Numbered from the stretch's first letter, positions 7,460 through 56,530 are shown. The stretch is 64,000 bases of DNA from Escherichia coli (GCF_030384885.1 NZ_CP128613.1), one strand, 5' to 3'. Notes: generated by a model not told the origin, from the letters alone. Numbers and translations are program-made.

Positions 7460-7641
7460 ACCACAGGTCAAGGAGAGACAATTTATAAGGTCAAAGAAAT
7501 ACTATTGCTCAGGTCTATACCGTATACTCCTTTCAGCCACAAAAAAAGTCATGTTGGTTTCGCAAGTTACCCAGAGCATGGAAGCAGGTTAAGGCTTGCG
7601 GAGTGTCTGGCTGACAGATAATCGTCGATGAGGGCAGTTTT

Positions 7642-7962: not shown

Positions 7963-8046
7963 TTTATTTTAAATTTTCCCGTCAAAGAGTTATTTCATAA
8001 ATCAATACCGCAATATTTAAATTGCGGTTTTTAAGGGTATTTTTCT

Positions 8047-9405: not shown

Positions 9406-9455
9406 TCGATGCCGGTAGGAGTAATCGTGCCGGCAAGAAAAGAGAGGAACGATGT

Positions 9456-9806: not shown

Positions 9807-9813
9807 GGAGTTG

Positions 9814-10656: not shown

Positions 10657-10758
10657 GTCGTTATACCTGACAATTAACATATCTGTCCTGTTGCTGGATT
10701 ATTTATGTCCGGGGGCAGATATGCCAGATATCAGTATTCTGTACTGAAGGGAGAAATT

Positions 10759-12111: not shown

Positions 12112-12882
<771 letters not shown>

Positions 12883-12892
12883 GTAAGGTGGT

Positions 12893-12920
12893 AAGGTCAC
12901 TCCCCAGGGGGCGTGACCTT
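12893..12920. terminator. Bidirectional terminator between convergent chbG and katE
   Basis: 8-bp perfect arms aaggtcac/gtgacctt enclosing a CCCC/GGGG stem. Confidence 0.5.
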
Positions 12921-12928
12921 ATCCATAT

Positions 12929-15190: not shown

Positions 15191-15393
15191 TGAACTCGTC
15201 TCCTTAATGTATTACTGAAAGGGCCGCTGTTTTGGTCAAAAAACTCTCTAACTATAGACCACCAGCCAGATCCCGCTTCGGAGACTATTCTGGAAACGGT
15301 GTTATGAAATACACGCAAAGCGGGACGTACAGGGGCTAAATCGGCTAAACTACAGTTTTTCTGATTTTTAATATGCGTTTAGTGAAGCCAGTA

Positions 15394-37758: not shown

Positions 37759-39234
<1,476 letters not shown>

Positions 39235-39237
39235 AGG

Positions 39238-39429
39238 CTACTTGGTCAATAGCAGCTTGCCAGCCTGAGTTTTACGGAGCAGATATTCTTGCCCGTCATG
39301 ATCGATAATCAGTTTGCCATCCGGACCTAACAGTGTCTGGCTGGTAATTCGCCGAATGGGCTGCGGGGAGGCGGTCTTGTGATTGGCATCCGTTTCAGGC
39401 GTGAGTTTTCTGCTATCCGTATAACGCAT
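39238..39429 (-). CDS. ydiE: HemP-like small protein YdiE
   Basis: Internal ATG of track ORF 39238..39456 gives the 63-aa [63 protein letters not shown]. Confidence 0.7.
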
Positions 39430-39451
39430 AAAAATTAATAATAATTGATAT

Positions 39452-39470
39452 AACAATGATTCTTATTATC
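39452..39470 (-). promoter_or_regulatory. Candidate Fur box upstream of ydiE
   Basis: Reverse complement GATAATAAGAATCATTGTT matches the 19-bp Fur consensus GATAATGATAATCATTATC at about 15 of 19 positions, 25-40 bp upstream of the ydiE start. Confidence 0.45.
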
Positions 39471-39560
39471 AATATTCTGGCGGGCCAGAGCAAGCAGTAA
39501 TTTGTTGAGAAGACAACAAGTTGCGCAGAAATGCCCATTCCGTCAGGAATGGGCACGCAT

Positions 39561-40607
39561 TCAGAAGCGGGTATCAACCGCAGAGGCGAGTTTTTCGACC
39601 AGGCGTTCGGTATCTTCCCAGCCCAGACACGGGTCGGTAATCGATTGACCGTAAGTGAGCGGCTGACCGCCGACGATTTTTTGCGTTCCTTCGCGCAGGA
39701 AACTTTCCGCCATAATTCCAGCAATCGCCGTAGAGCCATTGCGGATTTGCTGACAAATATCCTCACAAACTTCTAACTGGCGACGATGCTGCTTCTGGCA
39801 GTTGCCGTGGCTGAAATCCACCACCAGATGTTCAGGTAAATCAAACTCGTGCAACGTATCGCAGGCAGCGGCGATATCATCCGCATGGTAATTCGGCTTT
39901 TTGCCGCCACGCATAATAATGTGGCCATACGGATTGCCGCTGGTCTGATAGATGGTCATCTGACCATTTTTGTCTGGCGAGAGGAACATATGGCTGGCGC
40001 GGGCTGCGCGGATAGCATCCACGGCAATCCGCGTGTTGCCATCGGTACCATTTTTAAAACCTACCGGACAGGAGAGTGCCGAAGCCATTTCACGGTGGAT
40101 CTGACTTTCGGTAGTACGTGCGCCAATCGCGCCCCAACTGATTAAATCAGCAATAAACTGACCGGTCACCATATCGAGGAACTCAGTCGCGGTAGGGACG
40201 CCCAGCTCATTGACCTGTAAAAGTAATTTGCGCGCCAGCTCCAGACCGTGATTTACCCGATAGCTGCCGTTTAAATCCGGATCGGAGATTAGCCCTTTCC
40301 AGCCGACTACAGTTCGTGGTTTTTCAAAATAGGTGCGCATTACGATTTCCAGCCGTGACTGGTACTGGTTGCGCAGCGACTGCAGACGGGTGGCGTACTC
40401 CATTGCAGCGGTGAGATCGTGGATCGAGCAGGGGCCAATAATGACCAACAGTCGCTTATCTTCACCATTCAGTATTTTTTCAATTCTGCGGCGGGAGTCG
40501 GTGACATGGGTGGCGACGCCAGGCGTTACGGGATACCGTAGCGCGAGTTCGGCGGGCGTTACCAGGCTCTCAATACGCGCAGTACGGAGTTCGTCAGTTC
40601 TGTTCAT
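39561..40607 (-). CDS. aroH: DAHP synthase, tryptophan-sensitive isozyme
   Basis: 348-aa ORF MNRTDELRTARIESLVTPAELALRYPVTPGV... (class I DAHP synthase). Confidence 0.95.
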   Translation of the reverse strand: MNRTDELRTARIESLVTPAELALRYPVTPGVATHVTDSRRRIEKILNGEDKRLLVIIGPCSIHDLTAAMEYATRLQSLRNQYQSRLEIVMRTYFEKPRTVVGWKGLISDPDLNGSYRVNHGLELARKLLLQVNELGVPTATEFLDMVTGQFIADLISWGAIGARTTESQIHREMASALSCPVGFKNGTDGNTRIAVDAIRAARASHMFLSPDKNGQMTIYQTSGNPYGHIIMRGGKKPNYHADDIAAACDTLHEFDLPEHLVVDFSHGNCQKQHRRQLEVCEDICQQIRNGSTAIAGIMAESFLREGTQKIVGGQPLTYGQSITDPCLGWEDTERLVEKLASAVDTRF

Positions 40608-40752
40608 TACAAGTCTCAGAAATTTGTTGCTTCTACGGCAGGACTACCGGGAAGTGATGCGCATCACGATAAACCAATCGCAGCTGATTTCAAGTGCGAG
40701 GTGTGTCACACCTCGCCGGGTGGTTAGCATGATAACAAAAAAACAAGTTAAT

Positions 40753-40770
40753 GCACTAGTTCTCTAGTAC
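40753..40770 (-). promoter_or_regulatory. TrpR operator of the aroH promoter
   Basis: Reverse complement GTACTAGAGAACTAGTGC contains the paired CTAG half-sites of the Trp repressor operator; lies about 150 bp upstream of aroH and overlaps the last codons of ppsR. Confidence 0.6.
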
Positions 40771-41597
40771 ATTCGACGACTAAGGCCCATGATATCAAGG
40801 ATCTTGGTGGCAATCTCTTCTACCGAATAATTGGTACTGTTAATCCATGGGATCTGATTCTTACGGTACAACGCTTCCACTTCCGCGACTTCCATCCTGC
40901 ACTGACGAAGCGAGGCATAGCGACTGTTCTCCCGACGTTCCTCGCGAATCGCCGCCAGACGTTCCGGGTCGATAGTCAGGCCGAACAATTTATGCTGAAG
41001 CGGTTTGAGCGACGCGGGTAGCACCAGATTATCCATATCGTCGGCAATAAAGGGGTAGTTTGCCGCGCGGATACCAAATTGCATTGCCAGATACAGACTG
41101 GTGGGGGTTTTACCACAGCGAGAAACGCCGAGCAGGATCACCTGAGCCTGGTCCAGATTGCGCAACGAAATGCCGTCGTCATGGGCAAGGGTGTAATCAA
41201 TCGCCGCAATGCGCGCATCGTATTTATTGAGATTATTAGGGTTAAGGCCATGGGTACGATGAGCAATCGGCGTTGGATCCAGTTTCATCTCTTGCTGTAG
41301 CGGGGCAACCAGCGCCTGAACGATATCCTGGCAAAAGCCTTCACTTTGCAAGATGATGGCGCGAATCTCCGGCAACACGATGGAGTAGAAGACCAGTGGG
41401 CGCACACCTGTCTGGTGATAAATTGCGTCAATCTGATCCTTCACTGCCCGTGCACGGCTCTCATTTTCGACAAACGGCAGCGTAATGCTGCTGATAGTGA
41501 CGGGAAATTGTGACATTACTGCGTGTCCTAATACCTCCGCAGTTATTGCCGTACCATCAGAAATATAAAAAACGTGGCGATCAACAGCATTATCCAT
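40764..41597 (-). CDS. ppsR: PEP synthetase regulatory protein (bifunctional kinase/pyrophosphorylase)
   Basis: 277-aa [34 protein letters not shown] recognised as YdiA/PpsR; divergent from ppsA. Confidence 0.9.
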
Positions 41598-41827
41598 TTT
41601 GTTCTTCCCGTAATGCAGACATAATTCTATGAAAGCATAAATTAAAAACGCACAGAAGCGTAGAACGTTATGTCTGGTTTATAAAATGAACCTTCAATTT
41701 TATTTTTTATGAAAACAGCATTTCATTTTTACGGTTTCGTTTATACCGATGGTTTATGTGGAAATTGTCGAAGAGAGCAGATTTGCGCAACGCTGGGATC
41801 AGTCTTAAAAAGTAAAAAAATATATTT

Positions 41828-41843
41828 GCTTGAACGATTCACC
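41828..41843 (+). promoter_or_regulatory. Candidate Cra (FruR) site in the ppsA promoter
   Basis: GCTTGAACGATTCACC resembles the Cra consensus GCTGAAWCGWTTCAGC, about 90 bp upstream of ppsA. Confidence 0.5.
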
Positions 41844-41929
41844 GTTTTTTTCATCCGGTTAAATATGCAAAGATAAATGCGCAGAAATGTGTTTCTCAAA
41901 CCGTTCATTTATCACAAAAGGATTGTTCG

Positions 41930-44308
41930 ATGTCCAACAATGGCTCGTCACCGCTGGTGCTTTGGTATAACCAACTCGGCATGAATGATGTAGACAGGGT
42001 TGGGGGCAAAAATGCCTCCCTGGGTGAAATGATTACTAACCTTTCCGGAATGGGTGTTTCCGTTCCGAATGGTTTCGCCACAACCGCCGACGCGTTTAAC
42101 CAGTTTCTGGACCAAAGCGGCGTAAACCAGCGCATTTATGAACTGCTGGATAAAACGGATATTGACGATGTTACCCAGCTTGCGAAAGCGGGCGCGCAAA
42201 TCCGCCAGTGGATTATCGACACTCCCTTCCAGCCTGAGCTGGAAAACGCCATCCGCGAAGCCTATGCACAGCTTTCCGCCGATGACGAAAACGCCTCTTT
42301 TGCGGTGCGTTCCTCCGCTACTGCAGAAGATATGCCGGACGCTTCTTTTGCCGGTCAGCAGGAAACTTTCCTCAACGTTCAGGGTCTTGACGCCGTTCTC
42401 GTGGCAGTGAAACATGTATTTGCTTCTCTGTTTAACGATCGCGCCATCTCTTATCGTGTGCACCAGGGTTACGATCACCGTGGCGTGGCGCTCTCCGCCG
42501 GTGTTCAGCGGATGGTGCGTTCCGACCTCGCATCTTCTGGCGTGATGTTCTCCATTGATACCGAATCCGGCTTTGACCAGGTGGTGTTTATCACTTCCGC
42601 TTGGGGCCTTGGTGAAATGGTCGTGCAGGGCGCGGTTAACCCGGATGAGTTTTACGTACATAAACCGACACTGGCGGCAAATCGCCCGGCTATCGTGCGC
42701 CGCACCATGGGGTCAAAAAAAATCCGCATGGTTTACGCGCCGACCCAGGAGCACGGCAAGCAGGTTAAAATCGAAGACGTACCGCAGGAACAGCGTGACA
42801 TCTTCTCGCTGACCAACGAAGAAGTGCAGGAGCTGGCAAAACAGGCCGTACAAATTGAGAAACACTACGGTCGCCCAATGGATATTGAGTGGGCGAAAGA
42901 TGGCCACACCGGCAAACTGTTCATTGTGCAGGCGCGTCCGGAAACCGTGCGCTCACGCGGTCAGGTCATGGAGCGTTATACGTTGCATTCACAGGGTAAG
43001 ATTATCGCCGAAGGCCGTGCTATCGGTCATCGCATCGGCGCGGGTCCGGTGAAAGTCATTCATGACATCAGCGAAATGAACCGCATTGAACCTGGCGACG
43101 TGCTGGTCACTGACATGACCGACCCAGATTGGGAACCGATCATGAAGAAAGCATCTGCCATCGTCACCAACCGTGGCGGTCGTACCTGTCACGCGGCGAT
43201 TATCGCTCGTGAACTGGGCATTCCGGCGGTAGTGGGCTGTGGTGATGCAACAGAACGGATGAAAGACGGTGAGAACGTCACTGTTTCTTGTGCAGAGGGT
43301 GATACCGGTTACGTCTATGCTGAGTTGCTGGAATTTAGCGTGAAAAGCTCCAGCGTGGAAACGATGCCGGATCTGCCGTTGAAAGTGATGATGAACGTCG
43401 GTAACCCGGACCGTGCTTTCGATTTCGCCTGCCTGCCGAACGAAGGCGTGGGCCTTGCGCGTCTGGAATTTATCATCAACCGTATGATTGGCGTCCACCC
43501 ACGCGCACTGCTTGAGTTTGACGATCAGGAACCGCAGTTGCAAAACGAAATCCGCGAGATGATGAAAGGTTTTGATTCTCCGCGTGAGTTTTACGTTGGT
43601 CGTCTGACTGAAGGGATCGCGACGTTGGGTGCTGCGTTTTATCCGAAGCGTGTCATTGTCCGTCTCTCTGATTTTAAATCGAACGAATACGCCAACCTGG
43701 TCGGTGGTGAACGTTACGAGCCAGATGAAGAGAACCCAATGCTCGGCTTCCGTGGCGCGGGACGTTATGTTTCCGACAGCTTCCGCGACTGCTTCGCACT
43801 GGAGTGTGAAGCGGTGAAACGTGTGCGCAACGACATGGGACTGACCAACGTTGAGATCATGATCCCGTTCGTGCGTACCGTAGATCAGGCGAAAGCGGTG
43901 GTTGAAGAACTGGCGCGCCAGGGGCTGAAACGTGGTGAAAACGGGCTGAAGATCATCATGATGTGTGAAATTCCGTCCAACGCCTTACTGGCAGAGCAGT
44001 TCCTCGAATATTTCGACGGCTTCTCAATTGGCTCAAACGATATGACGCAGCTTGCGCTTGGTCTGGACCGAGACTCCGGCGTGGTGTCTGAACTGTTCGA
44101 TGAGCGCAACGATGCAGTGAAAGCACTGCTGTCGATGGCGATTCGTGCCGCGAAGAAGCAGGGCAAATATGTCGGGATTTGCGGTCAGGGTCCGTCCGAC
44201 CATGAAGACTTTGCCGCCTGGCTGATGGAAGAGGGGATCGATAGCTTGTCCCTGAATCCGGACACTGTGGTACAAACCTGGTTAAGCCTGGCTGAACTGA
44301 AGAAATAA
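41930..44308 (+). CDS. ppsA: Phosphoenolpyruvate synthase
   Basis: 792-aa ORF with phosphohistidine domain motif ([21 protein letters not shown]). Confidence 0.97.
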
Positions 44309-44316
44309 AATAAATA

Positions 44317-44342
44317 CCCGGCGGCGTTTTGTCGCCGGGTTT
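44317..44342 (+). terminator. Rho-independent terminator of ppsA
   Basis: Stem cccggcg/cgccggg followed by ttt, 9 bp after the ppsA stop. Confidence 0.55.
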
Positions 44343-44364
44343 ACGTGATCCCCGAGTATGAAAC

Positions 44365-46065
44365 TTATTCAACCTCTTCGCAGATATCCTGAGTTAATCG
44401 CCGCATAATATCTTTCCTTAACAAAAACTTTTGTATTTTACCTGATGCAGTACGTGGTAATTTCTCTGTTACCACAATATGTTCAGGATATTTATATTTT
44501 GCTACCCGTTTACGGCTAAAAAAAGCCACTATGTCTTTCAGCGATATTGAATGATGTGGCGCTTTCAGCACGACATAAGCGCATGAACGTTCACCTAAGC
44601 GTTCATCGGGCATTGCCACAACACAAGCATCATGAATTTTAGGATGCTGTAATAAAATATCTTCCACTTCACGACTGCTAATATTTTCCCCGCCGCGGAC
44701 AATAATATCTTTCTTGCGCCCGGTTATTTTTATATAGCCAGCTTCATCCATTCGGCAGAGATCGCCGCTGTAATACCAGCCTTCTTCATCCAGCGCACGG
44801 GCGGTTAATTCAGGTTCATCAAAATACCCCATAAATACATTGGGGCCACGCGAGGCTTCTTCACCTACACAACCAGGCGGTAAGGTCTTGCGTGCATCAT
44901 CGACCACTTTAATCTCTACGCCTGCGGCAGCGTAACCATCGGTGTTCATAAAGCGCGACAAAGGATCGTCGAGATTTACCACCGCATGCGGCGAACTTTC
45001 TGTGGAACCATAAACACTTAATAATTTAATGCCGCGTTGTTGGCATTCACGCGCCACCTTTTTGGGGATCGTGGTGCCGCCGCAAAGAAAGAAGCGGAGT
45101 GCTGAAAGGTCCGCAGGCTGTTTTTCCAGTAAGTTCAGCAAATCATAGACAAATGGCGTGGCGCCGAGCATACAGGTGCAACGCTGCTGCTCAAGCAGCG
45201 CGAGACACGCATCAGGAGTGAAAATATCTAACAACACGCTGCGAGCACCAATCAAAAAAGGTGCCGTTACGCCATGCAGAAAGCCCGTTGCGTGACCAAG
45301 TGGCGCAGGCATCATAAAGACATCCTGCCAGGTCAGGTTCAGCCGCGCGCAATATGCCCGCTCACTGGCGAGAATATTGTTATGCGTTAGCATCACGCCC
45401 TTTGGCTGCCCCTCAGTTCCGGAGGTAAATAGCACTGCTGCTAATTCATCGCCGTGGACCGTTATTGCCTTAGTCAGTGGGGTATTGTCGGCGATAAGAT
45501 GACTTAACGAGAGGGACGAGGTGGCGGGGGCCAGTTTGTCGACGCCGACGATTTGCTGTAGTTGTGGAAGCTGATTTTGCAGCGGCAGGATTAAATCTAC
45601 CGGACGCGTTTGTTTAAACAACGTCGGTGCAAAGAACATTTTTGCCTGACACTTATTGAGCACCCACACCAGTTCAGCCTCCCGCCAGGAAGGCAACAGC
45701 GGCACGGAAACCGCACCGGTTTTCAGGCAGGCAAGATAGATAACGGTAAATTCACACCAGCCAGGCAGTTGAAAAGCAATGCGATCCCCTGATTCAATAC
45801 CCTTCGCCAGCATCCAGTTTGCCAGACAGCTCGCGGCGTGATCGAGCTCGCTATAGGTGTACGATGCACCATGATTATCGACCACGGCAATTTTATCTGG
45901 CATCGAACGAGCGGTCTGCTGCCAGTAATCGGCCAGCGAAGCATCGCCCCATAATCCTTGTTGACGATAAGCCGCACGACGTTGTTCGTTAAACGTTAAT
46001 GTCACTTTCATTTTGGACTCTCGAAACAGAACATCAGGCCCGAGATACGGGCCTGTGGGATGCAT
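44365..46065 (-). CDS. fadK: Acyl-CoA synthetase (short/medium-chain, anaerobic) FadK
   Basis: 566-aa ORF with AMP-binding motif (TSGTEGQPKGV); ATG at 46065 lies 2 nt after the ydiT stop; an internal ATG at 46011 (MKVTLTF) would give 548 aa. Confidence 0.85.
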   Translation of the reverse strand: MHPTGPYLGPDVLFRESKMKVTLTFNEQRRAAYRQQGLWGDASLADYWQQTARSMPDKIAVVDNHGASYTYSELDHAASCLANWMLAKGIESGDRIAFQLPGWCEFTVIYLACLKTGAVSVPLLPSWREAELVWVLNKCQAKMFFAPTLFKQTRPVDLILPLQNQLPQLQQIVGVDKLAPATSSLSLSHLIADNTPLTKAITVHGDELAAVLFTSGTEGQPKGVMLTHNNILASERAYCARLNLTWQDVFMMPAPLGHATGFLHGVTAPFLIGARSVLLDIFTPDACLALLEQQRCTCMLGATPFVYDLLNLLEKQPADLSALRFFLCGGTTIPKKVARECQQRGIKLLSVYGSTESSPHAVVNLDDPLSRFMNTDGYAAAGVEIKVVDDARKTLPPGCVGEEASRGPNVFMGYFDEPELTARALDEEGWYYSGDLCRMDEAGYIKITGRKKDIIVRGGENISSREVEDILLQHPKIHDACVVAMPDERLGERSCAYVVLKAPHHSISLKDIVAFFSRKRVAKYKYPEHIVVTEKLPRTASGKIQKFLLRKDIMRRLTQDICEEVE

Positions 46066-46067
46066 GA

Positions 46068-46361
46068 TTAGCCGTAGCGAAAATCAATACCGAAGGTGCC
46101 TGCGGGATATTGCCACTGTTCGAGAATCGTATTGCCACACAACACCCGACAGGTGCCGCATTCGAGACAACCGGCGGAATCAAAATGTATGTTTCCTGCG
46201 TCATCCTGCTTATACAGTCCGGCAGGGCAAGCTTTCATTAATTTACGGAATTCATTGATATCGGGATTTGCCGCCAGAATGATATGCGGGTGACCCTCAT
46301 CAACATGGAATTTATTGACACCTAATTTGATGTCGACGTTAACCGTAGCGTTCTGGCTCAT
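46068..46361 (-). CDS. ydiT: Ferredoxin-like protein (FixX homolog)
   Basis: 97-aa ORF with Cys clusters (CLECGTCRVLC); overlaps ydiS stop by 4 bp. Confidence 0.85.
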   Translation of the reverse strand: MSQNATVNVDIKLGVNKFHVDEGHPHIILAANPDINEFRKLMKACPAGLYKQDDAGNIHFDSAGCLECGTCRVLCGNTILEQWQYPAGTFGIDFRYG

Positions 46362-47647
46362 AGCGCGGTTGCTCCCTTAATGCCATCTTTCAGCAAGTTG
46401 ATCAGCCCAATTTTCTTCGCATGTCCCATGATCATTTTGCGTACCGGTTGGTTAGGCTTACCGTCGATAGTGAACATTTCGTTCATGATGTCGGCGACCA
46501 TTCGTGGGTATTGGCTAAACAGGCGCGGGTTTTCCATCAGCGCCGGGATCTTGCGAAAATGCTGCATATCACGCATGACGCAACTTTGTTCCAGCTCACG
46601 TTTGTATTGCGCCAGGCTGCTGGCGGAGAAGTCAGCGCGTTCTTTAGCGGCAATCACTGTTGTGGCAGCAGCCTGGGCCGATGCGATGGCTAAATCCATT
46701 CCGCGAACCGTAAAGCCCAGATTGAGGCAGAAACCTGCGGCATCACCGACGATCATCACGCCCTCATTAACCAGCTGCGGCACCATCGCCAGACCGCCTT
46801 CCGGCACCATGTGCGCGGAATATTCAAGCAGTTTGCCGCCGCTAATCAGTGGGCGAATGGCGGGGTGTTGTTTAAAATCTTCCAGCATTTGCGGCACGCT
46901 TTTTTTTGCATGGGCGATATCACCCAATCCACAAACCAGCCCCAACGATACGGAATCCTTGTTGGTATAGAGGAATCCGCCGCCCATCAGGCCGTCAGAA
47001 GGGGAACCGGCAAACAGCCAGGCGGTACCTTCCTCGCCCATAACATTAAAGCGATCGTTGATTTGCTCTGGTGTAAGACCAATAACCTCTTTAACACCAA
47101 CTGCGTAATGATGCGGATCGGAAGCGGGAACCATTCCCAGCGAGCGGCCAAGCATTGAGTTAACGCCATCAGCCAGAATCACTACATTCGCTTCGAGAAT
47201 ATCCTCCCCGGCCTGGACGCCAGTGACCTTGTTTCCTTCACGAACCAGCGCATCGACGCGAACACCCGGGATAAACTGCGCACCCGCCTGTTCGGCTAGT
47301 TCCATCAACCACGGGTCCAGACGATTACGCAATACGGTATAAGACGCGTGTTGCGGAACATCTGGTTGCTCGCGGTGAAAATCGAGGGTAACGGCACTCT
47401 CTTCGGTTAAGAAGGAGATTTTCTCGCGTGTGACCTTGCGTTCTACCGGTGCTGATGCAGCAAAGCCCGGAATGATCGCTTCAAGTGTGTGGGCATAAAG
47501 ACGCCCGCCGGTCATATTTTTGCATCCGGCACTGTCGCCGCGTTCTATCACCAGGACATCCAGCCCGGCTCGCGCCATGACCAGTGCGGCAACGCTACCG
47601 GCAACGCCCGCACCGACCACAATGGCATCAAATTTGTCATCCGACAT
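46358..47647 (-). CDS. ydiS: FAD-dependent oxidoreductase (FixC / ETF-quinone oxidoreductase-like)
   Basis: 429-aa ORF with N-terminal FAD-binding fold (FDAIVVGAGVAGSVAALVMARAGLDVLVIERG). Confidence 0.9.
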   Translation of the reverse strand: MSDDKFDAIVVGAGVAGSVAALVMARAGLDVLVIERGDSAGCKNMTGGRLYAHTLEAIIPGFAASAPVERKVTREKISFLTEESAVTLDFHREQPDVPQHASYTVLRNRLDPWLMELAEQAGAQFIPGVRVDALVREGNKVTGVQAGEDILEANVVILADGVNSMLGRSLGMVPASDPHHYAVGVKEVIGLTPEQINDRFNVMGEEGTAWLFAGSPSDGLMGGGFLYTNKDSVSLGLVCGLGDIAHAKKSVPQMLEDFKQHPAIRPLISGGKLLEYSAHMVPEGGLAMVPQLVNEGVMIVGDAAGFCLNLGFTVRGMDLAIASAQAAATTVIAAKERADFSASSLAQYKRELEQSCVMRDMQHFRKIPALMENPRLFSQYPRMVADIMNEMFTIDGKPNQPVRKMIMGHAKKIGLINLLKDGIKGATAL

Positions 47648-47701
47648 GCGTTATGCTCCCTTCCCGCTGCGTTTACAGCGGGAGATGTGGTTGAAAGGGA
47701 A

Positions 47702-48640
47702 TTAGCGACTCAACTGACTAATCAGGGCAGGGACGACTTTGTAGATATCGCCCACCAGACCGTAGTCGGCATAGTTGAAGATTGGCGCATTTTTATCTTT
47801 ATTAATGGCGACAATCACTTTTGCACCGTTGCCGCCAACCATATGCTGGATCTGCCCGGAGATCCCCAGCGTCAGGTAGAGATCGGATTTCAGCAACACG
47901 CCGGAGACACCGATATAACGTTCACGCTCCATCCAGTTCTCGCCTTCGGCAATTGGACGTGAACAGCCGACTTCAGCATTCAGAACCGCCGCCAGTTCGT
48001 GGACCATTTTCAGGTCATCCTGCGCCGCCAGACCACGACCGACGCCAACCACACGTTTTGCTTTGCTCAGGTCCACGCTGCTTGCCGCTTTCGCACGGCG
48101 TTCGCGACAGAGAATTTCATGACGCGGGGCAACATAAGGTACCGTTTCTGTCGGGCACTGATGAGAGATATCACTGGTGCACGGTTCCTGAACACCGGGT
48201 GCAAGGGTAATGATCGCCAGCGGGCTGTTGATCTTTTCCTGAGCGAACGCTAACCCGCCATACATCCGGTGTTCGGCGCAAATGTGACCATCGACAATAT
48301 CCACCGCCGTGGCATCGTTCACCAGCGCCGCATTCAGTTGCACACTTAACCGTGCTGCCAGAGCTTTACCACGTTTCGTCGCGGCCAACAGCAACATAGC
48401 GGGGTGTTTATCTTTCAGCAGGGCAGCAATGCTTTCGGCGTAATTTTCAGTACGTTGCAGCGCGTCGTTTTGTTCAAGAACATAAATACATTTTGGCCCA
48501 TAAGGCATAACTGCCTGCGCCTGGTCGGTATTTTGTACAATGGCATACACCTGTTGGCCCCATTGCTGAGCGCCGCCAAACAGTTCAGCATAACGTTCAG
48601 GATTATCGCTAAAGACCCAGACGCTGTTTAATTGACTCAT
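47702..48640 (-). CDS. ydiR: Electron transfer flavoprotein alpha subunit (FixB homolog)
   Basis: 312-aa ORF recognised as ETF alpha. Confidence 0.9.
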   Translation of the reverse strand: MSQLNSVWVFSDNPERYAELFGGAQQWGQQVYAIVQNTDQAQAVMPYGPKCIYVLEQNDALQRTENYAESIAALLKDKHPAMLLLAATKRGKALAARLSVQLNAALVNDATAVDIVDGHICAEHRMYGGLAFAQEKINSPLAIITLAPGVQEPCTSDISHQCPTETVPYVAPRHEILCRERRAKAASSVDLSKAKRVVGVGRGLAAQDDLKMVHELAAVLNAEVGCSRPIAEGENWMERERYIGVSGVLLKSDLYLTLGISGQIQHMVGGNGAKVIVAINKDKNAPIFNYADYGLVGDIYKVVPALISQLSR

Positions 48641-48659
48641 CGTTTCTTCTCCGTAGGCT

Positions 48660-49424
48660 TCAGTTCAGGGCTTTCTTCAGATGTTCCGCCAGCTCGGCAA
48701 TGGCCTCCGGCGAATCGTTATCGAGAATGATGTGCTTACGTTCTGTTTGCGGCGGTACGCGAATGCCGGTCAGTTCAGCAAGTGGTGTGCTCTGGCTCCA
48801 GCCAATATCACTTGCCTGCCACTGATTTACCGGTTTTTTACCCGCGCCGAGAATGGCTTTCATCGAAGGAATGCGTGGCATGTTAATATCGGAGGTGACG
48901 CAGAGCACGGCTGGAACAGAGAGCTCAATAACTTCAACATCATCTTCAAGCGTGCGTTCAATCACCAGTGTATTGCCCTGACGCTGAATAGCACTCACTG
49001 CATTAATCACCGGAAGTTGCAGAATTTCTCCGACCAGCAAGCCAACCTGCTGGGCATAAAGGTCGCCGGAACCTTCACCAAAGATCAGTAAATCGAAGCC
49101 GATCTTTTCAACTGCTGCCGCCAGCGCCTTTGCGGTATCGAGAGGCAGTGCATGTTCAAGTTGCGCATCCTGCACCAAATACAGGCTATGCGGCCCGCGG
49201 GATAGCACGTCTTTGCGCACTTTCGAGTTCTGCAACAATGAGCCGCCAATGGTCAGCGCGGCTATCTCATCGTCATCTGTTGCAATCTGGCTTGCAGCTT
49301 CAATGGCATTGAGATCGAACTGGCTGATTTTGGCGTCGGCATTGTCGAAATTCAGGGTATATTCTGGAGTGACAACAATGTCCTGTTCTTCAGGCACCAG
49401 CTTAAAGCAGGTTATTATTTTCAT
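48660..49424 (-). CDS. ydiQ: Electron transfer flavoprotein beta subunit (FixA homolog)
   Basis: Track ORF extends to 49523; ATG at 49424 (MKIITCFKLVPEEQD) gives the expected 254 aa. Confidence 0.88.
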   Translation of the reverse strand: MKIITCFKLVPEEQDIVVTPEYTLNFDNADAKISQFDLNAIEAASQIATDDDEIAALTIGGSLLQNSKVRKDVLSRGPHSLYLVQDAQLEHALPLDTAKALAAAVEKIGFDLLIFGEGSGDLYAQQVGLLVGEILQLPVINAVSAIQRQGNTLVIERTLEDDVEVIELSVPAVLCVTSDINMPRIPSMKAILGAGKKPVNQWQASDIGWSQSTPLAELTGIRVPPQTERKHIILDNDSPEAIAELAEHLKKALN

Positions 49425-49739
49425 GATTTCTCCTGTGAGTCGCATACGGAACCATCTCCGATGGAAGGTAAAAATGGCCTGAAAATAGTGTGCGATAGCG
49501 GTGCGGGGTTTTCGACGGAGCAAGCTGTTTTCCTTGCCAACAATCTTGCAAAAAAAATGCGATCGCTAAAACAAAAGTGCAATTTGCGGCAAAGTTGTTA
49601 TTCCATGACCGTACAATCTTGCATTCAGTGTAAATAATCTTGTTTAGCTCTCGCTAAACGCGGTTGTATAACCGCAATACACGCCGTATTTTATCCGGCA
49701 TATATTGTTTTTGCTTGCTCATGGAATAGGGAGGTTGTC

Positions 49740-50651
49740 ATGTATCAACGCTGTTTTGATAACGCCAGCGAAACGCTGTTTGTCGCCGGTAAAACGCCAC
49801 GGCTTTCACGTTTTGCATTTAGCGATGATCCAAAATGGGAGTCCGGACATCACGTTCATGACAATGAAACCGAGTTGATTTACGTCAAGAAAGGGGTAGC
49901 AAGGTTTACCATCGATTCTTCGTTATATGTCGCGCATGCCGATGACATTGTGGTGATAGAACGTGGCAGGTTGCATGCGGTGGCCTCTGACGTTAACGAT
50001 CCGGCAACGACGTGTACCTGTGCGCTGTACGGCTTTCAGTTTCAGGGGACTGAGGAAAATCAGCTACTGCAACCGCATTCTTGCCCGGTCATTGCCGCAG
50101 GGCAGGGAAAAGAAGTCATTAAAACCTTATTTAATGAGCTAAGTGTGATTTTGCCGCAAAGTAAAAATAGCCAAACATCTTCGTTATGGGACGCATTTGC
50201 CTATACGTTAGCAATTCTTTACTACGAAAACTTTAAAAATGCTTATCGTTCGGAGCAGGGGTATATTAAAAAAGATGTTCTGATAAAAGATATTCTTTTC
50301 TATCTGAATAATAATTATCTCGAAAAAATCACTTTAGAGCAGTTATCGAAAAAATTTCGTGCCAGCGTCAGTTATATCTGCCATGAATTTACCAAAGAGT
50401 ATCGTATTTCCCCTATTAACTATGTTATTCAACGGCGTATGACGGAAGCGAAATGGTCACTCACTAATACTGAATTATCACAGGCAGAGATCTCCTGGCG
50501 TGTGGGTTATGAAAATGTCGATCACTTTGCCAAACTGTTTTTGCGCCATGTCGGCTGTTCGCCCAGCGATTACCGCAGGCAATTTAAAAACTGTTTTGCG
50601 GAACAAGAAATCCTATCTGAATTTCCTCAACCAGTAAGTCTTGCCGGATAA
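49740..50651 (+). CDS. ydiP: AraC-family transcriptional regulator
   Basis: 303-aa ORF with C-terminal AraC helix-turn-helix; AT-rich; divergent from ydiQ. Confidence 0.85.
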   Translation: MYQRCFDNASETLFVAGKTPRLSRFAFSDDPKWESGHHVHDNETELIYVKKGVARFTIDSSLYVAHADDIVVIERGRLHAVASDVNDPATTCTCALYGFQFQGTEENQLLQPHSCPVIAAGQGKEVIKTLFNELSVILPQSKNSQTSSLWDAFAYTLAILYYENFKNAYRSEQGYIKKDVLIKDILFYLNNNYLEKITLEQLSKKFRASVSYICHEFTKEYRISPINYVIQRRMTEAKWSLTNTELSQAEISWRVGYENVDHFAKLFLRHVGCSPSDYRRQFKNCFAEQEILSEFPQPVSLAG

Positions 50652-50655
50652 ATCT

Positions 50656-50687
50656 GGCGGCGCAGTTTGTTAAGAAGCTGCGCCGCC
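50656..50687. terminator. Bidirectional hairpin between convergent ydiP and ydiO
   Basis: 10-bp perfect arms ggcggcgcag/ctgcgccgcc with a 12-nt loop; no strong T-run. Confidence 0.4.
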
Positions 50688-50693
50688 TGCAGA

Positions 50694-51845
50694 TTATTTG
50701 TTCTGATAATCTTTCAGGATCTGCCGACCCGCTACGTAAATCATAATTTCGTCTGTACCGCCGCCGATACGTTCACAACGGACATCACGCCAGAAGCGGG
50801 AGACGCGCGCCTCATCGGTATAGCCCAGACCGCCCATGATTTGAATCGCATCATCAATAACTTCCATTGCGGTACGTGCGCAGTACAGTTTTGCCAGCGC
50901 CGCGCTGGTGCGCAGTGACTGATGCTGATCGGCTTGCCATGCCACTTTCAACACCATGTTGCGCATGTTGTCGATCTTAATCGCCATCAGCGCCAGTTTT
51001 TCCTGGATCATCTGGTTATGACCAATGGGTTTACCAAAAGCGATACGTTGGTTGGCATAGCGGGCGGCATCTTCGAATGCGCATTCGGCAAAGCCGGTGC
51101 TGCGCGCGGCGTTGATCAGGCGCTCCATCTCAAAGTTGTACATCACATTGAGGAAACCCATTCCTTCTTCGCCCACCATGTCGCTCTCTTCAACCTCTAC
51201 GTTGTCGAGATAGACTTCGCAGGTGCTGAGCATATGCCAGCCGATTTTATGCAGCGGGTTAATCTTAATGCCGGGCTTACTGGAGTCGACCCACCACAGG
51301 GTGAAGGCTTTTTTGGGATCTTTCGGTTCTGGATCGCGCGCCAGCACCAGCATATATGGGTACTCTTTCGCGCCGGTAATAAAGGTTTTCTGGCCGTTGA
51401 TGTAAACCTTGCCATTTTTACGCGTGTAAGTGGTAGTGGCACTGTTATTGTCTGAGCCTGCGCCTGGTTCCGTCAACGCCAGGGCATAGGCGGGATCACC
51501 CGTTTCCAGGGTGCTCTCTGCCGTTTTACGTAGCTGCTCAGCAGAACCGAAACGGCGCATGCTGTGAATACATTGACCGTTGGTAATCAAAAATGCCGGA
51601 GCACCGCATTTTGACACTTCCATCAGCGCCAACATCTGGGTGACGTAATCCGCAGGGATGCCACCAAATTCTTCCGGCACGCCAAGCATAGAAATGCCGT
51701 TATCCGCCAGTGCCCGCATAAACTCACGCGGGTATGTCCCGTTTTGATCGCAGGTGCGGAAATACTCTTCCGGGAAGTTGGTCGTAATCAACTCGCGAAT
51801 ACTGGCCAGCAGCAGTTCTTGTTCTTCAGTTAAAGAAAAATCCAT
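50694..51845 (-). CDS. ydiO: Acyl-CoA dehydrogenase-family protein
   Basis: Track ORF 401 aa; ATG at 51845 (MDFSLTEEQELLL) gives 383 aa; ACAD fold with C-terminal ETF-interacting region. Confidence 0.88.
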   Translation of the reverse strand: MDFSLTEEQELLLASIRELITTNFPEEYFRTCDQNGTYPREFMRALADNGISMLGVPEEFGGIPADYVTQMLALMEVSKCGAPAFLITNGQCIHSMRRFGSAEQLRKTAESTLETGDPAYALALTEPGAGSDNNSATTTYTRKNGKVYINGQKTFITGAKEYPYMLVLARDPEPKDPKKAFTLWWVDSSKPGIKINPLHKIGWHMLSTCEVYLDNVEVEESDMVGEEGMGFLNVMYNFEMERLINAARSTGFAECAFEDAARYANQRIAFGKPIGHNQMIQEKLALMAIKIDNMRNMVLKVAWQADQHQSLRTSAALAKLYCARTAMEVIDDAIQIMGGLGYTDEARVSRFWRDVRCERIGGGTDEIMIYVAGRQILKDYQNK

Positions 51846-51858
51846 CGTGATACTCCTG

Positions 51859-53454
51859 TTAATGAGCCGCTTCAGGCAGGACAAAACCCATCGCCGCATC
51901 GATAAATAATCTTTCGTCCATCAGTTTGAGTTCTGGTGAAATCACTGGGGTGAAATCCATTTTGTCGAGAATATCTTTTTGTAAATCGACGCCAGGGGCG
52001 ATTTCGATTAAATGCAGGCCGTCTTCTTTTAGCGTGAATACGGCGCGCTCAGTGATATAACGAACATCCAGCCCTCGCTCGAGAGCGATTTTTCCGCTGA
52101 AAGTAATTTCCGGTAGTTCCCGAATAAATTTCTTCACCCGTCCTTCCTGGACGATATTTAATTTGCCGTCGGTAATTTCTGTTTTTAAACTGCCCGCAGT
52201 TAACGTGCCGCAGAAAACGATTTTCTTCGAAGTGGCACTGATATCAATAAATCCACCGGTGCCCATGATTTTACCATTGAATTTATGCACGCCGACGTTA
52301 CCGTGCTGGTCGACTTCAGCAAAACTCAAATAACAAACATCCAGACCGCCACCGTGATAAAAATCAAACTGGGACGTCATATCCAGAATGGCACGGGTAT
52401 TCACGTTCGCGCCAAAGGCGATACCCTGTGAAGTAATACCGCCAATTGGGCCTGTTTCTACCGTCAGAATAAAGTCATCAGCACAACCTTCTTCCCGGGC
52501 GACCAGGCCAATGCCGTCAGCAATACCGACGCCGACATTCCCCACCGCGCCTTTACGCATTTCGAATAATGCGCGCCGCGCAACTAATTTACGTTGGTTT
52601 AGGGGCAGGCTAAGTTTGGTACTGTCATCAAGGGTGAAGTCACCAGAAATAAAGCGGTTAACCGGCGCACCGCCATACAGTTGGGTTTGATCCGGATCGA
52701 CCACCACAATATCCACCAGATAACCCGGAATACGGACAGATTTAGGATGCAGCGTGGCTTTCTTAACCATTTTCTGCACCTGCATCATCACAATACCGCC
52801 GTTATTGTGCACCGCCTGAGCAATAACCAATGCGTCGAGATACATCACCTCATCTTCAAAAGTGGCGTAGCCTTCGCTGTCGCAGGTGGTAGCGCGAATG
52901 AAGGCGATATCTGGCGCTATCGCTTTGTAATAGAGATATTCTTTGTTATCAAACTCGACCAGTTTAATCAGGTCTTCTTTAGTGACTTCATTCAGTTTGC
53001 CGCCTTGCTGGCGTGGATCGACAAATGTTCCGATGCCAATATCACTAATAATACCAGGCTGGTGGGCTGCGGCGGCGCGTAAGGTTTGTGTAAGTACACC
53101 TTGTGGATAGTTATAAGCAATAATTTTATTTTGTTCTGCGAGATCAGAAATACGCGGCGATTGTCCCCAGTGACCGCATAATGCCCATTTCACCAGACCT
53201 TCTTGTGCCAGCGGACTAATACCACGGTCGGCGCGATCGCCAAGCCCTGTTGGACTAATAATCGATAAATTACGTGGTGTTTGAGTCTGTTTATATTTAT
53301 CAGCAAGAGCAGTAATTAACGTGGTGGCTTCCAGAATACCGCCGCCAGCGCCTAACACACAAAGTGTTGCTTCGTCGGGAATATAATTCACCGCTTCCTG
53401 TGCCGACAGGACCGGCACTCGTCCATTAATACGAGGTGGTTTTACAGGTTTCAT
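51859..53454 (-). CDS. ydiF: Acyl-CoA:acetate/short-chain acid CoA-transferase (fused alpha/beta)
   Basis: 531-aa ORF recognised as a family I CoA-transferase. Confidence 0.9.
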   Translation of the reverse strand: MKPVKPPRINGRVPVLSAQEAVNYIPDEATLCVLGAGGGILEATTLITALADKYKQTQTPRNLSIISPTGLGDRADRGISPLAQEGLVKWALCGHWGQSPRISDLAEQNKIIAYNYPQGVLTQTLRAAAAHQPGIISDIGIGTFVDPRQQGGKLNEVTKEDLIKLVEFDNKEYLYYKAIAPDIAFIRATTCDSEGYATFEDEVMYLDALVIAQAVHNNGGIVMMQVQKMVKKATLHPKSVRIPGYLVDIVVVDPDQTQLYGGAPVNRFISGDFTLDDSTKLSLPLNQRKLVARRALFEMRKGAVGNVGVGIADGIGLVAREEGCADDFILTVETGPIGGITSQGIAFGANVNTRAILDMTSQFDFYHGGGLDVCYLSFAEVDQHGNVGVHKFNGKIMGTGGFIDISATSKKIVFCGTLTAGSLKTEITDGKLNIVQEGRVKKFIRELPEITFSGKIALERGLDVRYITERAVFTLKEDGLHLIEIAPGVDLQKDILDKMDFTPVISPELKLMDERLFIDAAMGFVLPEAAH

Positions 53455-53597
53455 TGTTAATTCCTGATTCAGGTGTGATTTTCCCTACGCCAGATGGAGA
53501 ATTAGCGCACAGAGACTCACGAAATATTTTTATTAAATACGGTTGAATATATTTTTTTGTTCGGCGGGGGAGGGTATTCCCGCCGAAATATTATTGC

Positions 53598-54356
53598 TTA
53601 TGCCTGATGTAAAATAGTTAATACCGTGCGCAAATCATTTACCGAGATTTGCCCTGGCGCAGAGGCTTTTTTTACCGCACCAAAAGTTGCCGCCGAGCCA
53701 AATACTTCACCAGCCAGACGAGAAATTACGCCAGTTTTTGCCATCGACATCGTGATGATTGGACGATCGGCATACTGCTCCTGCATCTCCAGGGTCGCAG
53801 CAAGCAACGTCAGCACATCGCTGGTACTTTGCGGCATCAGCGCAATCTTAGGAATATCGGCATCGAAGGACTGCATTTTGCGCAGACGGGCAATGATTTC
53901 TTCGGCTTCCGGCGTTTTATGGAAGTCATGGTTGGACATGACAACTTTCACATCATGCGCGTGGGCGTAGGCGACGGTTTCTTTAACCTGATCATCGCCG
54001 GTAAATAACTCCAGATCGATCATATCAACCAGGCCACTATCGATGGCTGCACGATTGAGTGCAATATAAGCCTCGGTGGAAATCGCCTGCTCGCCGCCTT
54101 CTTTGGCACTGCGGAAGGTAAACAGCAGCGGTTTTTCTGGCATGGTTTCACGGAGAATTTTTGCCGCTGCCATGACAGACTCCACATTGGAGAGGTCGGC
54201 ATAGTGGTCAACACGCCATTCCAGAATATCAAAGTCCGCTTCACGATAGGCGAGAGCTTCGGATTTCACGCTGGCGATATCTTTCGCCATCAGCGAGACG
54301 ATGATTTTAGGTGCGCCCGTACCAATGACGAGATCTTTTACAGTTACGGTTTTCAT
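53598..54356 (-). CDS. aroD: 3-dehydroquinate dehydratase (type I)
   Basis: 252-aa [55 protein letters not shown]. Confidence 0.93.
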
Positions 54357-54386
54357 TTTTTACCCTTTCTGCACGCGGTCAGCCTG

Positions 54387-55253
54387 TCAGGCACCAAACC
54401 CCATGACCTGTTTAACATATTCCAGAGGGAAATCTTTGCCAGTCCATAACGTGAACTGTTCAGCCCCTTGCCACAACAACATGCCGTATCCATCAATCGT
54501 TTTGCAACCAGCTTGTTGCGCCTGCTGCAATAACTTCGTCATATGCGGGTTATACACGCATTCAGTGACCAGAAGTCCCGGATGTAACAGACTGATATCA
54601 TTAACCAATGATTCATTCTCAAGGGGTTTCATACCCACTTTTGTGCCATTGGTTAAAATGTCGGCGGAAGCCAGGGCTTCAGCAAAGGCTTGCTGATCGG
54701 CGAGATCGGTGACTGTCACGACGCAATCGGTGTTTTCGTTAACCCGCTGCGCGAAGGCGAGGGCTTTATCGAAGAACTCATCCCGACGGTTAAAGAGTTT
54801 AATTTCTTTTAAACCTTCAATTGCCCCCTGCGCGCCAATCGCCGTTGAGGCACCTCCGGCCCCTAACAGCACCATCGTTTTGCCTTTGATATCAAAACCG
54901 CTCTCTTTAATGGCGCGAATATGCCCCGTGCCGTCGGTGTTATAGCCACGCAGATAGCCATCATCATTAACGATGGTGTTGATGGCCCCCACCAGTTTGG
55001 CAGCTGGTGTTAATTCATCAACATATTCACACGCCAGTTGTTTGTTCGGCATTGATACACCAGTTCCGCGCATTTTTAGAGCTTTTAATCCTTCAATTGC
55101 TCCGGGAAAGCTATCGTTATCCACTTCAAAGGCCATATAGGTAAATGGCAATCCCGCTTTTTCTAAGGCTTTATTCTGCATTTCGGGCGATAAACTGTGG
55201 CGGATAGGATAGGCCATCAACCCAATCAATTCGTATTTTGCGGTAACATCCAT
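54387..55253 (-). CDS. ydiB: Quinate/shikimate dehydrogenase (NAD-dependent)
   Basis: 288-aa [38 protein letters not shown] (shikimate dehydrogenase fold). Confidence 0.9.
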
Positions 55254-55264
55254 AATTAACTCCT

Positions 55265-56530
55265 TTAACCTCTATGCTTAATTGTGTTTAACCGGGTGCT
55301 AAATTTACGCTCGCCAAACCGCACATCATTTTCAGGAATAATGAAAACGCGGTAATAGCGGATAAAAACAATAATTGCGGTAATCAGGGCCAGCAGCGCG
55401 AAAGTAAAATCGAGAACAATGATATATTGCAGGCCGATGTTCGACAGATAACCGGTAATCAGCGGAATAACAAAGTTAGCCAGTCCACCCATCATCATAT
55501 AAATACTGGTGACTTTGGCTTTGCTTTTGGGGAAAAACTCTGACATGACCGAAACGCCGAGCTGTAAAATGCCGCCAGCCGCTGAGAAACCGATAACAAA
55601 GGCTCCGGCATTACACACCAGTGGAGAAGGGTACAGGTAGATAATGGCAGCTGTTATTGTTGCCAGTGCAGAGTTAAATACATTAGCCCAGATGGGCCGG
55701 ACCATTTTTTTCAGTAGTGCGGCAAAAATAAAGACACAGACCAACGAGCCCATACTGTAATAAGAGATGGTTTTTAATGCCTCAGCTTCTGACATACCAG
55801 CAAAAGCCATCGCATATTTGGGCATCCACACCACAATCACATAAAAGGTCGAGAATGCGGCTACACCGAACAGTACCGATGAAACACCTTCCAGCCAGAC
55901 TAATGGTTTGCTGTTCATTTGTGGTAATTCATGAGCTACGCTGGCGTCCACCAACTGGCTGGGGAATTTGCTTTTCAACAGCATCAACGTGATCAGTAAA
56001 AATAGGATGCCTGGAATAATCAGCCCATAGCCGTACCAGATATTATTGAGCAACATATAGCTCACTAGCATTGGATAGAACATTTGTCCAAATGACACCA
56101 TTGCTTTAACCAGTATGACTGCCGAACCGGAGGCTTTCGGAAAGCATTCCATTAGCGCGGGGTAACCACCCGTATCCAATGCTGAGTTAGCGATACCTAC
56201 GCACACTGCCAGACAGTAGGCGAGAGTTAAATTCGGGCAAGCGGGAATACCAAAGAAGAATAGCAGATACATTATTACTGCCATTAATATTACCGCCCGA
56301 CGACCAAACTTATCGGAGATCACACCGAAGAATAAAATACTGATCAATCGCCCCAAACCGATACCGGAAATTAAATAGGCAATGCCCGCGTTGTCAGTAG
56401 AAAACTTTTCTGCCAGAGATGACATATTTTGGGCAAGCGTTATAACACTAATGCCGTGCAGGAAATAGCTGAAGTAAATACAAAGAACAGCCAGGATAAA
56501 TGGCGTGCTGAAAGCCTTATTTTGAGACAT
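55265..56530 (-). CDS. ydiN: MFS transporter YdiN
   Basis: Track ORF starts at GTG 56536; ATG at 56530 ([20 protein letters not shown]) gives 421 aa; 12 predicted TM segments. Confidence 0.85.

Follow-up and report, generated by a model that had tools for sequence, protein, structure and literature searches.

The sequence considered here is a window of 64,000 nucleotides (nt) from Escherichia coli (GCF_030384885.1, NZ_CP128613.1), in which positions 44365-49424 carry the operon ydiQRST-fadK. An earlier note on this DNA had described five tightly linked minus-strand genes, encoding the small (beta) and large (alpha) subunits of an electron transfer flavoprotein (ETF), a FixC-like oxidoreductase dependent on flavin adenine dinucleotide (FAD), a ferredoxin, and an acyl-coenzyme A (CoA) synthetase. 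The gene coordinates (Table 1) were taken from the listing of open reading frames (ORFs) and from the RefSeq record of E. coli 2013C-4282 (NZ_CP027579.1), which is 100% identical to the window, and the window proteins were searched against the NCBIfam profiles with the curated cut-offs applied. Both sources place the limits of the locus exactly at the fadK stop codon and the ydiQ ATG. The genes follow each other on one strand in the order ydiQ-ydiR-ydiS-ydiT-fadK, flanked by ppsA and by ydiP-ydiO-ydiF. All five ORFs are intact and full length and match their families from end to end. The ORF list, the RefSeq annotation and the NCBIfam families thus agree that the cluster is real and not a chance arrangement.

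The locus is an ordinary core-genome operon of E. coli, correctly identified by the earlier note. It was found in 5420 of 5426 complete E. coli genomes, with a coverage of at least 80% in 5365. Its five genes correspond to b1697-b1701 of strain K-12, and the Salmonella counterpart is named ydiQRSTD. The locus is already known, and the side observations given below are incremental leads, not discoveries.

Table 1. Genes and candidate regulatory features in and around the ydiQRST-fadK operon (positions in the window; aa, amino acids; bp, base pairs)
Feature	Position	Strand	Basis
GC-rich hairpin CCCGGCG..CGCCGGG in the 56-nt convergent ppsA-fadK gap, T-rich on the fadK side (TATTTATTTT)	44317..44339		read from the sequence
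fadK (ydiD), short/medium-chain acyl-CoA synthetase, 548 aa (566 aa for the longer ORF from ATG 46065)	44365..46011	-	NF004758 (medium-chain fatty-acid-CoA ligase), 1075 bits (cut-off 736)
Terminator-like hairpin in the ydiT-fadK spacer, CAGGCCCG-tatct-CGGGCCTG followed by ATGTTCTGTT	46035..46055	-	terminator scan; 8 pairs, 7 of them GC
ydiT, FixX-type ferredoxin-like protein, 97 aa	46068..46361	-	FixX model, 144 bits (cut-off 166); YdiT has no model of its own
ydiS, FixC-like FAD-dependent ETF:quinone oxidoreductase, 429 aa	46358..47647	-	NF007450, 965 bits (cut-off 466)
Stem-loop in the ydiR-ydiS gap, UCCCGCUGU-aaac-GCAGCGGGA	47662..47683	-	9 bp; abuts the ydiS Shine-Dalgarno box AGGGAG (47661-47656)
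ydiR, ETF large (alpha, FixB-like) subunit, 312 aa	47702..48640	-	NF008884, 691 bits (cut-off 528)
ydiQ, ETF small (beta, FixA-like) subunit, 254 aa	48660..49424	-	NF008998, 496 bits (cut-off 338)
Divergent ydiQ/ydiP control region	49425..49739		sequence and 15-species alignment
ydiP, AraC-family regulator, divergent from ydiQ	49740..50651	+	annotation and NCBIfam; synteny in all class A loci
ydiO, acyl-CoA dehydrogenase, nearest paralogue CaiA	50694..51845	-	NF008997, 787 bits; CaiA model, 452 bits
ydiF, family I acyl-CoA:acetate/3-ketoacid CoA-transferase, co-oriented with ydiO	51859..53454	-	annotation, NCBIfam, synteny

Relatives of the operon were collected by a YdiS scan of one genome per species, which yielded 80 loci, and these were typed by tblastn with the window proteins. 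Three classes were observed. In class A the order aroD-ydiF-ydiO-ydiP-ydiQRST-fadK is the same in at least ten enterobacterial genera (Escherichia, Citrobacter, Kosakonia, Intestinirhabdus, Yersinia, Brenneria, Serratia, Symbiopectobacterium, Prodigiosinella and Dickeya). Between genera (L007-L032) YdiO is 92-97% and YdiF 87-93% identical, compared with 68-86% for YdiQRST and FadK, which implies an unusually strong constraint on the YdiO dehydrogenase and the YdiF CoA-transferase. When YdiP and AroD are added, the less conserved set spans 64-86%.

Class B loci (YdiS 64-70% identical) were found in Phytobacter, in a second locus of Citrobacter youngae, in Edaphovirga and in Budvicia. Their genes run in one direction: ydiO-like, ydiQRST-like, an aromatic-acid:H+ symporter and fadK-like, the symporter being absent in Edaphovirga. 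The YdiO-like gene lies directly upstream of the ETF genes. Operons of this type or related to it are L030, L031, L034, L035 and L036, and the symporter is of the PcaK/MhpT type. The C. youngae locus (L034, positions 1800-15200) is flanked by genes for an AcrC-like acyl-CoA dehydrogenase, a CaiB-type CoA-transferase, a major facilitator superfamily (MFS) transporter and an HpaA-like regulator. In the orthologous locus L048, which branches deeply, ydi-type synteny is combined with the same aromatic-acid symporter (57% identical). Class C (YdiS about 60% identical) consists of the caiA...caiC/fixABCX loci. Since an acyl-CoA dehydrogenase, an ETF, FixCX-type proteins and a CoA ligase recur together in three paralogous versions, YdiO is predicted, on good comparative evidence, to be the redox partner of YdiQRST, and the adjacency of ydiO and ydiQ in class B adds to this prediction.

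The comparison of gene neighbourhoods with fixABCX, proposed in the earlier note, supports an electron-transfer reading, as caiA/fixABCX is paralogous and has the same kind of layout. CaiA and YdiO are 48% identical, FixA, FixB, FixC and FixX are about 53, 45, 60 and 63% identical to YdiQ, YdiR, YdiS and YdiT, respectively, and CaiC and FadK are 28% identical. The small-subunit motif GxGSxDLY[AS]QQ, which is atypical, occurs in both systems, as do a FixX-type protein with cysteines for one cluster and a hairpin at the boundary of the ETF and FixC genes. However, the CoA-transferases belong to different families, CaiB to family III and YdiF to family I. Furthermore, an antiporter and a regulator are dedicated to cai/fix, whose substrate is known and which is known to run reductively, whereas the ydi substrate and direction are presumptive.

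The four redox genes have the FixABCX/EtfABCX architecture, with adjacent genes for the ETF small subunit, the ETF large subunit, a FixC-type and a FixX-type protein. The best solved-structure matches of YdiQ and YdiR are CarDE, LctBC and Clostridioides difficile EtfAB, all of them bifurcating, ahead of the human and Paracoccus ETFs. YdiS is best matched by 7koe_C, the FixC subunit of Thermotoga maritima EtfABCX (E 7.6e-70), followed by porcine ETF-quinone oxidoreductase (ETF-QO, 2gmh, E 3.9e-23), and YdiT by 7koe_D, T. maritima EtfX (E 2.3e-14). Together with the NCBIfam families, these matches agree with the protein identities given in the earlier note. The architecture is that of the bifurcating FixABCX of Azotobacter vinelandii and Rhodopseudomonas palustris and of T. 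maritima EtfABCX (7KOE), and all four best matches are subunits of bifurcating complexes and not canonical ETFs. One could therefore suppose that YdiQRST itself bifurcates electrons, coupling the oxidation of NADH to the reduction of quinone (or of enoyl-CoA via YdiO) and of a low-potential ferredoxin or flavodoxin. However, the motifs of YdiQ and YdiT, and possibly that of YdiR, argue against it.

The zipper motif of the small subunit is DGDTAQ in 216 bifurcating ETFs, with T conserved in 100%, and DDDSNQ in 449 canonical ETF sequences, with the third D and N conserved in 98% (PMC8958531). When YdiQ was aligned with HMMER to CarD, LctB and C. difficile EtfB, its residues 120-125 at this site read D-L-Y-A-Q-Q, and the same residues align to DDDCNQ of the human protein. 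Neither the bifurcating nor the canonical motif is present in YdiQ, and DGDTAQ is likewise absent from the 80 enterobacterial relatives examined, in all three paralogue classes, which share the consensus G[DE]GSxDLY[AS]QQ. The near-universal, flavin-contacting Arg of the large subunit (R165 of the R. palustris ETF) aligns with YdiR His123, although Arg124 is next to it and a one-residue shift of the alignment is possible; the FixB paralogues have H-M at these two positions, without Arg. YdiT has five cysteines, of which C45, C65, C68 and C71 would bind one [4Fe-4S] cluster and C75 is extra. Where T. maritima EtfX has its first Cys motif, YdiT reads ILAANPDINEFRK, so the second-cluster cysteines are missing, and YdiT differs in this from the two-cluster FixX/EtfX proteins of bifurcating complexes, the clusters being counted from sequence. 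The four cluster cysteines are invariant across the 80 loci and all three classes, and most FixX paralogues have exactly four cysteines.

From these motifs we infer that YdiT holds one [4Fe-4S] cluster and that YdiQR does not have the bifurcating FAD. There is most probably no second FAD and no bifurcation in YdiQRST. The bifurcating activity suggested for testing in the earlier note is thus not favoured, and we consider it very improbable. Given the YdiQ and YdiR motifs and the one-cluster cysteine pattern of YdiT, a simple relay from acyl-CoA through the ETF to quinone appears likelier.

The reading that we favour, with moderate confidence, is that ydiQRST-fadK, ydiF-ydiO and ydiP together form an oxidative relay for short- and medium-chain fatty acids (butyrate to octanoate) in anaerobic respiration. 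FadK, using ATP, or YdiF, by CoA transfer, would form the acyl-CoA, which would be oxidised to enoyl-CoA by YdiO, an FAD-containing acyl-CoA dehydrogenase. The soluble ETF YdiQ/YdiR, a one-electron shuttle, would take up the two electrons singly on its FAD and hand them on to the single [4Fe-4S] cluster of YdiT, from which they would reach the FAD of the membrane-associated FixC-like YdiS. YdiS would deliver them into the quinone pool, to be reoxidised with nitrate or another acceptor. The relay would be non-bifurcating and probably reversible. Presumptive parts of this scheme are the pairing of YdiO with YdiQR, quinone as the acceptor, the direction in which the electrons run and the control by YdiP via conserved GCAAGAT repeats.

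The proposed logic is that of the mitochondrial and proteobacterial chain of acyl-CoA dehydrogenase, ETF and ETF-QO, which also has a single Fe-S cluster, and YdiS matches the porcine enzyme. However, the function of ETF-QO would here be split between YdiS and YdiT, which may be regarded as its bacterial equivalent in two parts, YdiQ lacks the AMP-site motif DDDSNQ, and the ydi ETF is nearer to the bifurcating clade. That electrons are exchanged between an acyl-CoA couple and quinones, as the earlier note proposed, is also the accepted annotation, and it is supported by the protein families, the solved-structure matches, the paralogy with caiA/fixABCX and the gene adjacency in class B.

Published genetics point to fatty acids. 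FadK is most active on C6-C8 substrates (Morgan-Kiss and Cronan 2004, cited in PMC9329746), and a fadD fadK double mutant is unable to use fatty acids (PMC9329746). The ydiQRSTD operon of Salmonella is reported to mediate anaerobic butyrate use dependent on an electron acceptor, and it is described as deleted or degraded in typhoidal and extraintestinal serovars. A need for ydiO/ydiQRST in anaerobic use of fatty acids or butyrate was reported by Gulevich 2016 and Bronner 2018, according to papers that cite them. The earlier note had called the physiological role unresolved, which is fair for E. coli biochemistry (PMC9329746) but overlooks these genetic data on butyrate, C6-C8 acids and anaerobic respiration.

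Several points weigh against an oxidative fatty-acid relay. The nearest characterised paralogue, CaiA with FixABCX, runs reductively, and the aromatic-acid:H+ symporter in orthologous and paralogous operons hints at other substrates. We know of no E. coli biochemistry for YdiO/YdiQRST. According to a 2022 review (PMC9329746), the function of YdiQR is unknown, experimental evidence for fatty acids is lacking, and transcriptome data failed to confirm that fadK is induced anaerobically; the same review gives no FadR or cAMP receptor protein (CRP) control, and our scan of the control region found no FNR, CRP, FadR or ArcA consensus. Finally, crotonyl-CoA reduction in vivo changed little when ydiO was deleted or overexpressed in reverse beta-oxidation strains (2026 review, PMC13126070).

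The same proteins could work in the opposite direction. Electrons would then flow from (mena)quinol through YdiQRST to YdiO, which would reduce enoyl-CoA as a terminal sink, an enoyl-CoA or 'enoate' respiration comparable to the carnitine respiration of CaiA/FixABCX. FadK and YdiF would only provide the CoA thioester and recycle it. Next in paralogy are the cai/fix loci, which have the same layout, including the CoA ligase, and CaiA and FixA/B/C/X are the second-best families of all five redox proteins. Anaerobic carnitine reduction depends on FixAB (Walt and Kahn 2002, cited in PMC9329746), and YdiO-YdiQRST has served as the enoyl-CoA reductase step in an engineered reversal of beta-oxidation. 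By our calculation, the potential of the enoyl-CoA/acyl-CoA couple, about -10 mV, is above that of menaquinone, about -74 mV, so that reduction would be downhill. On the other hand, the Salmonella genetics point to consumption of butyrate that requires an external electron acceptor, ydiO added little to crotonyl-CoA reduction in vivo (PMC13126070), and no natural enoate substrate is known for E. coli. The reductive direction is therefore a tentative alternative, and the less probable one compared with the oxidative relay.

Another possibility concerns the substrate. It could be an aromatic, phenylpropanoid or hydroaromatic carboxylate (from plant phenolics, quinate/shikimate or the host) and not a straight-chain fatty acid, activated by FadK or YdiF, oxidised or reduced by YdiO and sensed by YdiP. 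In full, the whole cluster ydiF-ydiO-ydiP-ydiQRST-fadK would be a Cai/Fix-like anaerobic redox module and not primarily one of fatty-acid beta-oxidation; it would be activated by YdiP through the GCAAGAT repeats, have an ETF that is neither canonical nor bifurcating, and perhaps be connected with the aroD-ydiB genes nearby. The PcaK/MhpT-type symporter gene lies between ydiT and fadK in L048 and in L030, L031, L034 and L036, and an HpaA-like AraC regulator flanks the paralogous operon. Next to the cluster are aroD-ydiB (quinate/shikimate dehydrogenase) and two MFS genes. The second-best family of FadK is cyclohexanecarboxylate-CoA ligase, and YdiO matches models of cyclohexane-1-carbonyl-CoA dehydrogenase, all of these below the cut-offs. 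In a shikimate-overproducing strain ydiQ, ydiR, ydiS and ydiT are differentially expressed (PMC4015609), and E. coli BL21 becomes resistant to the phenolic compound (S)-equol when ydiS alone is overexpressed (PMC5994542). The absence of FadR and CRP sites in the consensus scan fits as well.

However, the E. coli operon has no such transporter, and no homologue of it was found in the window. The matches to alicyclic enzymes are far below the cut-offs, and the expression and resistance data are indirect, whereas the activity of FadK on C6-C8 acids and the butyrate phenotype of Salmonella are direct. A substrate of this kind is thus rather unlikely, and so is the fuller scheme built on it. The products of ydiN and ydiM were considered as counterparts of the class B transporter and rejected, as no significant similarity was observed. 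The (S)-equol resistance and the expression in the shikimate strain are not explained by a fatty-acid role.

The control region between the divergent genes ydiQ and ydiP contains three copies of RCAAGATT in the same orientation (49636-49643, 49615-49622 and 49542-49549). Only six matches to this pattern occur in the 64-kb window, three of them here, and none was found upstream of ydiF. In the 15-species alignment the copies sit in blocks that show no change between Escherichia and genera as far apart as Dickeya and Yersinia: AAACAAGATTnTTT-N8-TGCAAGAT; TTTTTTTGCAAGAT...AAAACA; and CGCACACTATTT. The last of these, at about 49482-49493, resembles a -10 box and is conserved, without a match to the -35 box. 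Compared with K-12, the region has three differences in 315 nt, below the synonymous divergence of the flanking genes.

A scan for the sigma-70 promoter consensus detected no site upstream of ydiQ, and overall no more sites than in shuffled sequences. Nor were there matches to the FadR, CRP and ArcA consensus within three to four mismatches at 49400-49760, although a simple consensus scan is a weak test. The only matches in a scan for FNR, CRP, FadR, ArcA, NarL and IHF were weak FNR-like ones (two to three mismatches) at the ydiP start codon and inside ydiT, and they were rejected as evidence. The lack of a fad-regulon operator in the scan agrees with the 2022 review, which records no control by FadR or CRP (PMC9329746). 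The likeliest reading of the region is an activator-dependent promoter with the GCAAGAT repeats as candidate YdiP operators, YdiP being the presumed regulator of the operon.

The earlier note had taken the spacing of the genes as a sign of translational coupling. This is clear only for ydiS and ydiT, whose 4-bp overlap, as claimed, reads ATGA. The ydiQ-ydiR gap is 19 nt long and contains GGAG, and the ydiR-ydiS gap is 54 nt long. For fadK the claim is doubtful. An in-frame ATG does lie at 46065, 2 nt past the ydiT TAA, as the note had stated, and it is the start in the K-12 RefSeq record (566 aa). However, the Prokaryotic Genome Annotation Pipeline (PGAP) places the start in this strain at the ATG at 46011, 54 nt downstream (548 aa), and the match to the NCBIfam FadK profile NF004758 starts with residue 19 of the long ORF. 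In E. whittamii, Escherichia sp. E1V33, E. coli SCPM-O-B-8794 and E. albertii, ACG stands in place of the upstream ATG, and in E. albertii the long frame is closed just ahead of the downstream ATG. In other genera the ydiT-fadK gap varies from 35 to 241 nt, and the downstream ATG and a Shine-Dalgarno box of the GAGA type are kept everywhere. Given the PGAP call, the profile start, the loss of the upstream ATG, the variable gap and the hairpin in the 56-nt spacer, comparative data favour 46011 over 46065 as the functional start, and the ATG next to the ydiT stop, present as described, is probably the wrong start codon.

The terminator-like hairpin in the ydiT-fadK spacer has an invariant stem among the Escherichia lineages and a variable loop (tatct, catct, cacgt, cacat, ctcgt, gacat). 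As the loop changes would be non-synonymous at two adjacent codons and the third-position bases of the stem never change, the spacer appears to be maintained as structure and not as coding sequence. Other genera have different hairpins or repetitive extragenic palindromic (REP)-like elements at this position. In some Citrobacter, Kosakonia-like and Prodigiosinella genomes (L009, L012, L017 and L027, at about 11581-11820) the spacer has grown to 128-241 nt, and the expanded spacers hold REP-like palindromic elements or other inserts. Translational coupling of fadK to ydiT is thus improbable, and fadK may be insulated in part from ydiQRST. The list of differentially expressed genes in the shikimate strain (PMC4015609), which includes the other four genes of the operon, does not contain fadK; this agrees with insulation, but the evidence is weak.

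The stem-loop in the ydiR-ydiS gap is conserved across genera. In 23 class A sequences 96.8% of the cells are paired, with compensatory double changes in four of the nine pairs. The covariation score was reached by none of 500 shuffles, and it collapsed in slid controls. In L002-L029 the stem-loop lies at about 9960-9995. Yersinia has no hairpin at this boundary, and the class B operons and fixB-fixC gaps (L037-L080) have unrelated GC-rich hairpins at the same ETF|FixC boundary. No Rfam family matched the region 43800-54500 at E<=1. We think that the stem-loop may be an mRNA-stability or decoupling element which would give more ETF than ETF-QO per transcript. Together, the two intercistronic hairpins probably cause ETF, ETF-QO and FadK to be made in unequal amounts from the same transcript. 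The hairpin in the ppsA-fadK gap is a likely bidirectional terminator; the consensus terminator scan did not flag it, which we attribute to a loop above the 8-nt limit of the scan.

The operon differs from that of K-12 only by allelic changes. The five genes, their order, neighbours and junctions are the same, and the nucleotide identity per gene is 95-98%. In ydiO, ydiR, ydiS and ydiT the differences are mostly synonymous, which indicates purifying selection. In ydiQ eight differences are nonsynonymous and four synonymous, all of them conservative and scattered. The strain represents a rare lineage: over the operon block, the nearest other complete E. coli genome reaches 98.2% identity, and when positions 38000-56000 were compared as three 6-kb segments, no other complete E. 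coli genome exceeded 98.2-99.3% identity. That the operon is unusually divergent in this strain was considered and rejected, as the flanks are likewise at most 98.9-99.3% identical to other genomes, an effect of lineage. The ydiS gene is 5.3% divergent from K-12, nearly all of it synonymous, compared with 2-3% for the neighbour genes, which suggests a recombined segment, that is, a mosaic.

One could also regard the operon as a largely cryptic or decaying remnant with no important role in E. coli. Its function has stayed poorly defined after decades of study, its induction in transcriptomes is inconsistent (PMC9329746), and the Salmonella counterpart is described as lost or degraded in extraintestinal serovars. 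However, the five ORFs are intact and kept in nearly all complete E. coli genomes, the substitutions relative to K-12 are overwhelmingly synonymous in the four genes named above, and the control region and an RNA hairpin are conserved across genera. Decay is thus hardly credible.

As the operon is named and annotated in the core genome, its presence in the window is not news. What the sequence analysis adds is that bifurcation signatures are absent, that YdiT has cysteines for one cluster, that fadK probably starts at 46011, that the hairpins between cistrons are conserved, that a candidate operator for YdiP exists and that paralogous operons carry a transporter gene. These points narrow the hypotheses and leave the overall picture unchanged. 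The biochemistry of the operon is an acknowledged gap, since of the three FixAB-type ETF systems in E. coli a defined role exists for the carnitine one only. In Salmonella, the operon has been linked to butyrate use and to virulence in the inflamed gut.

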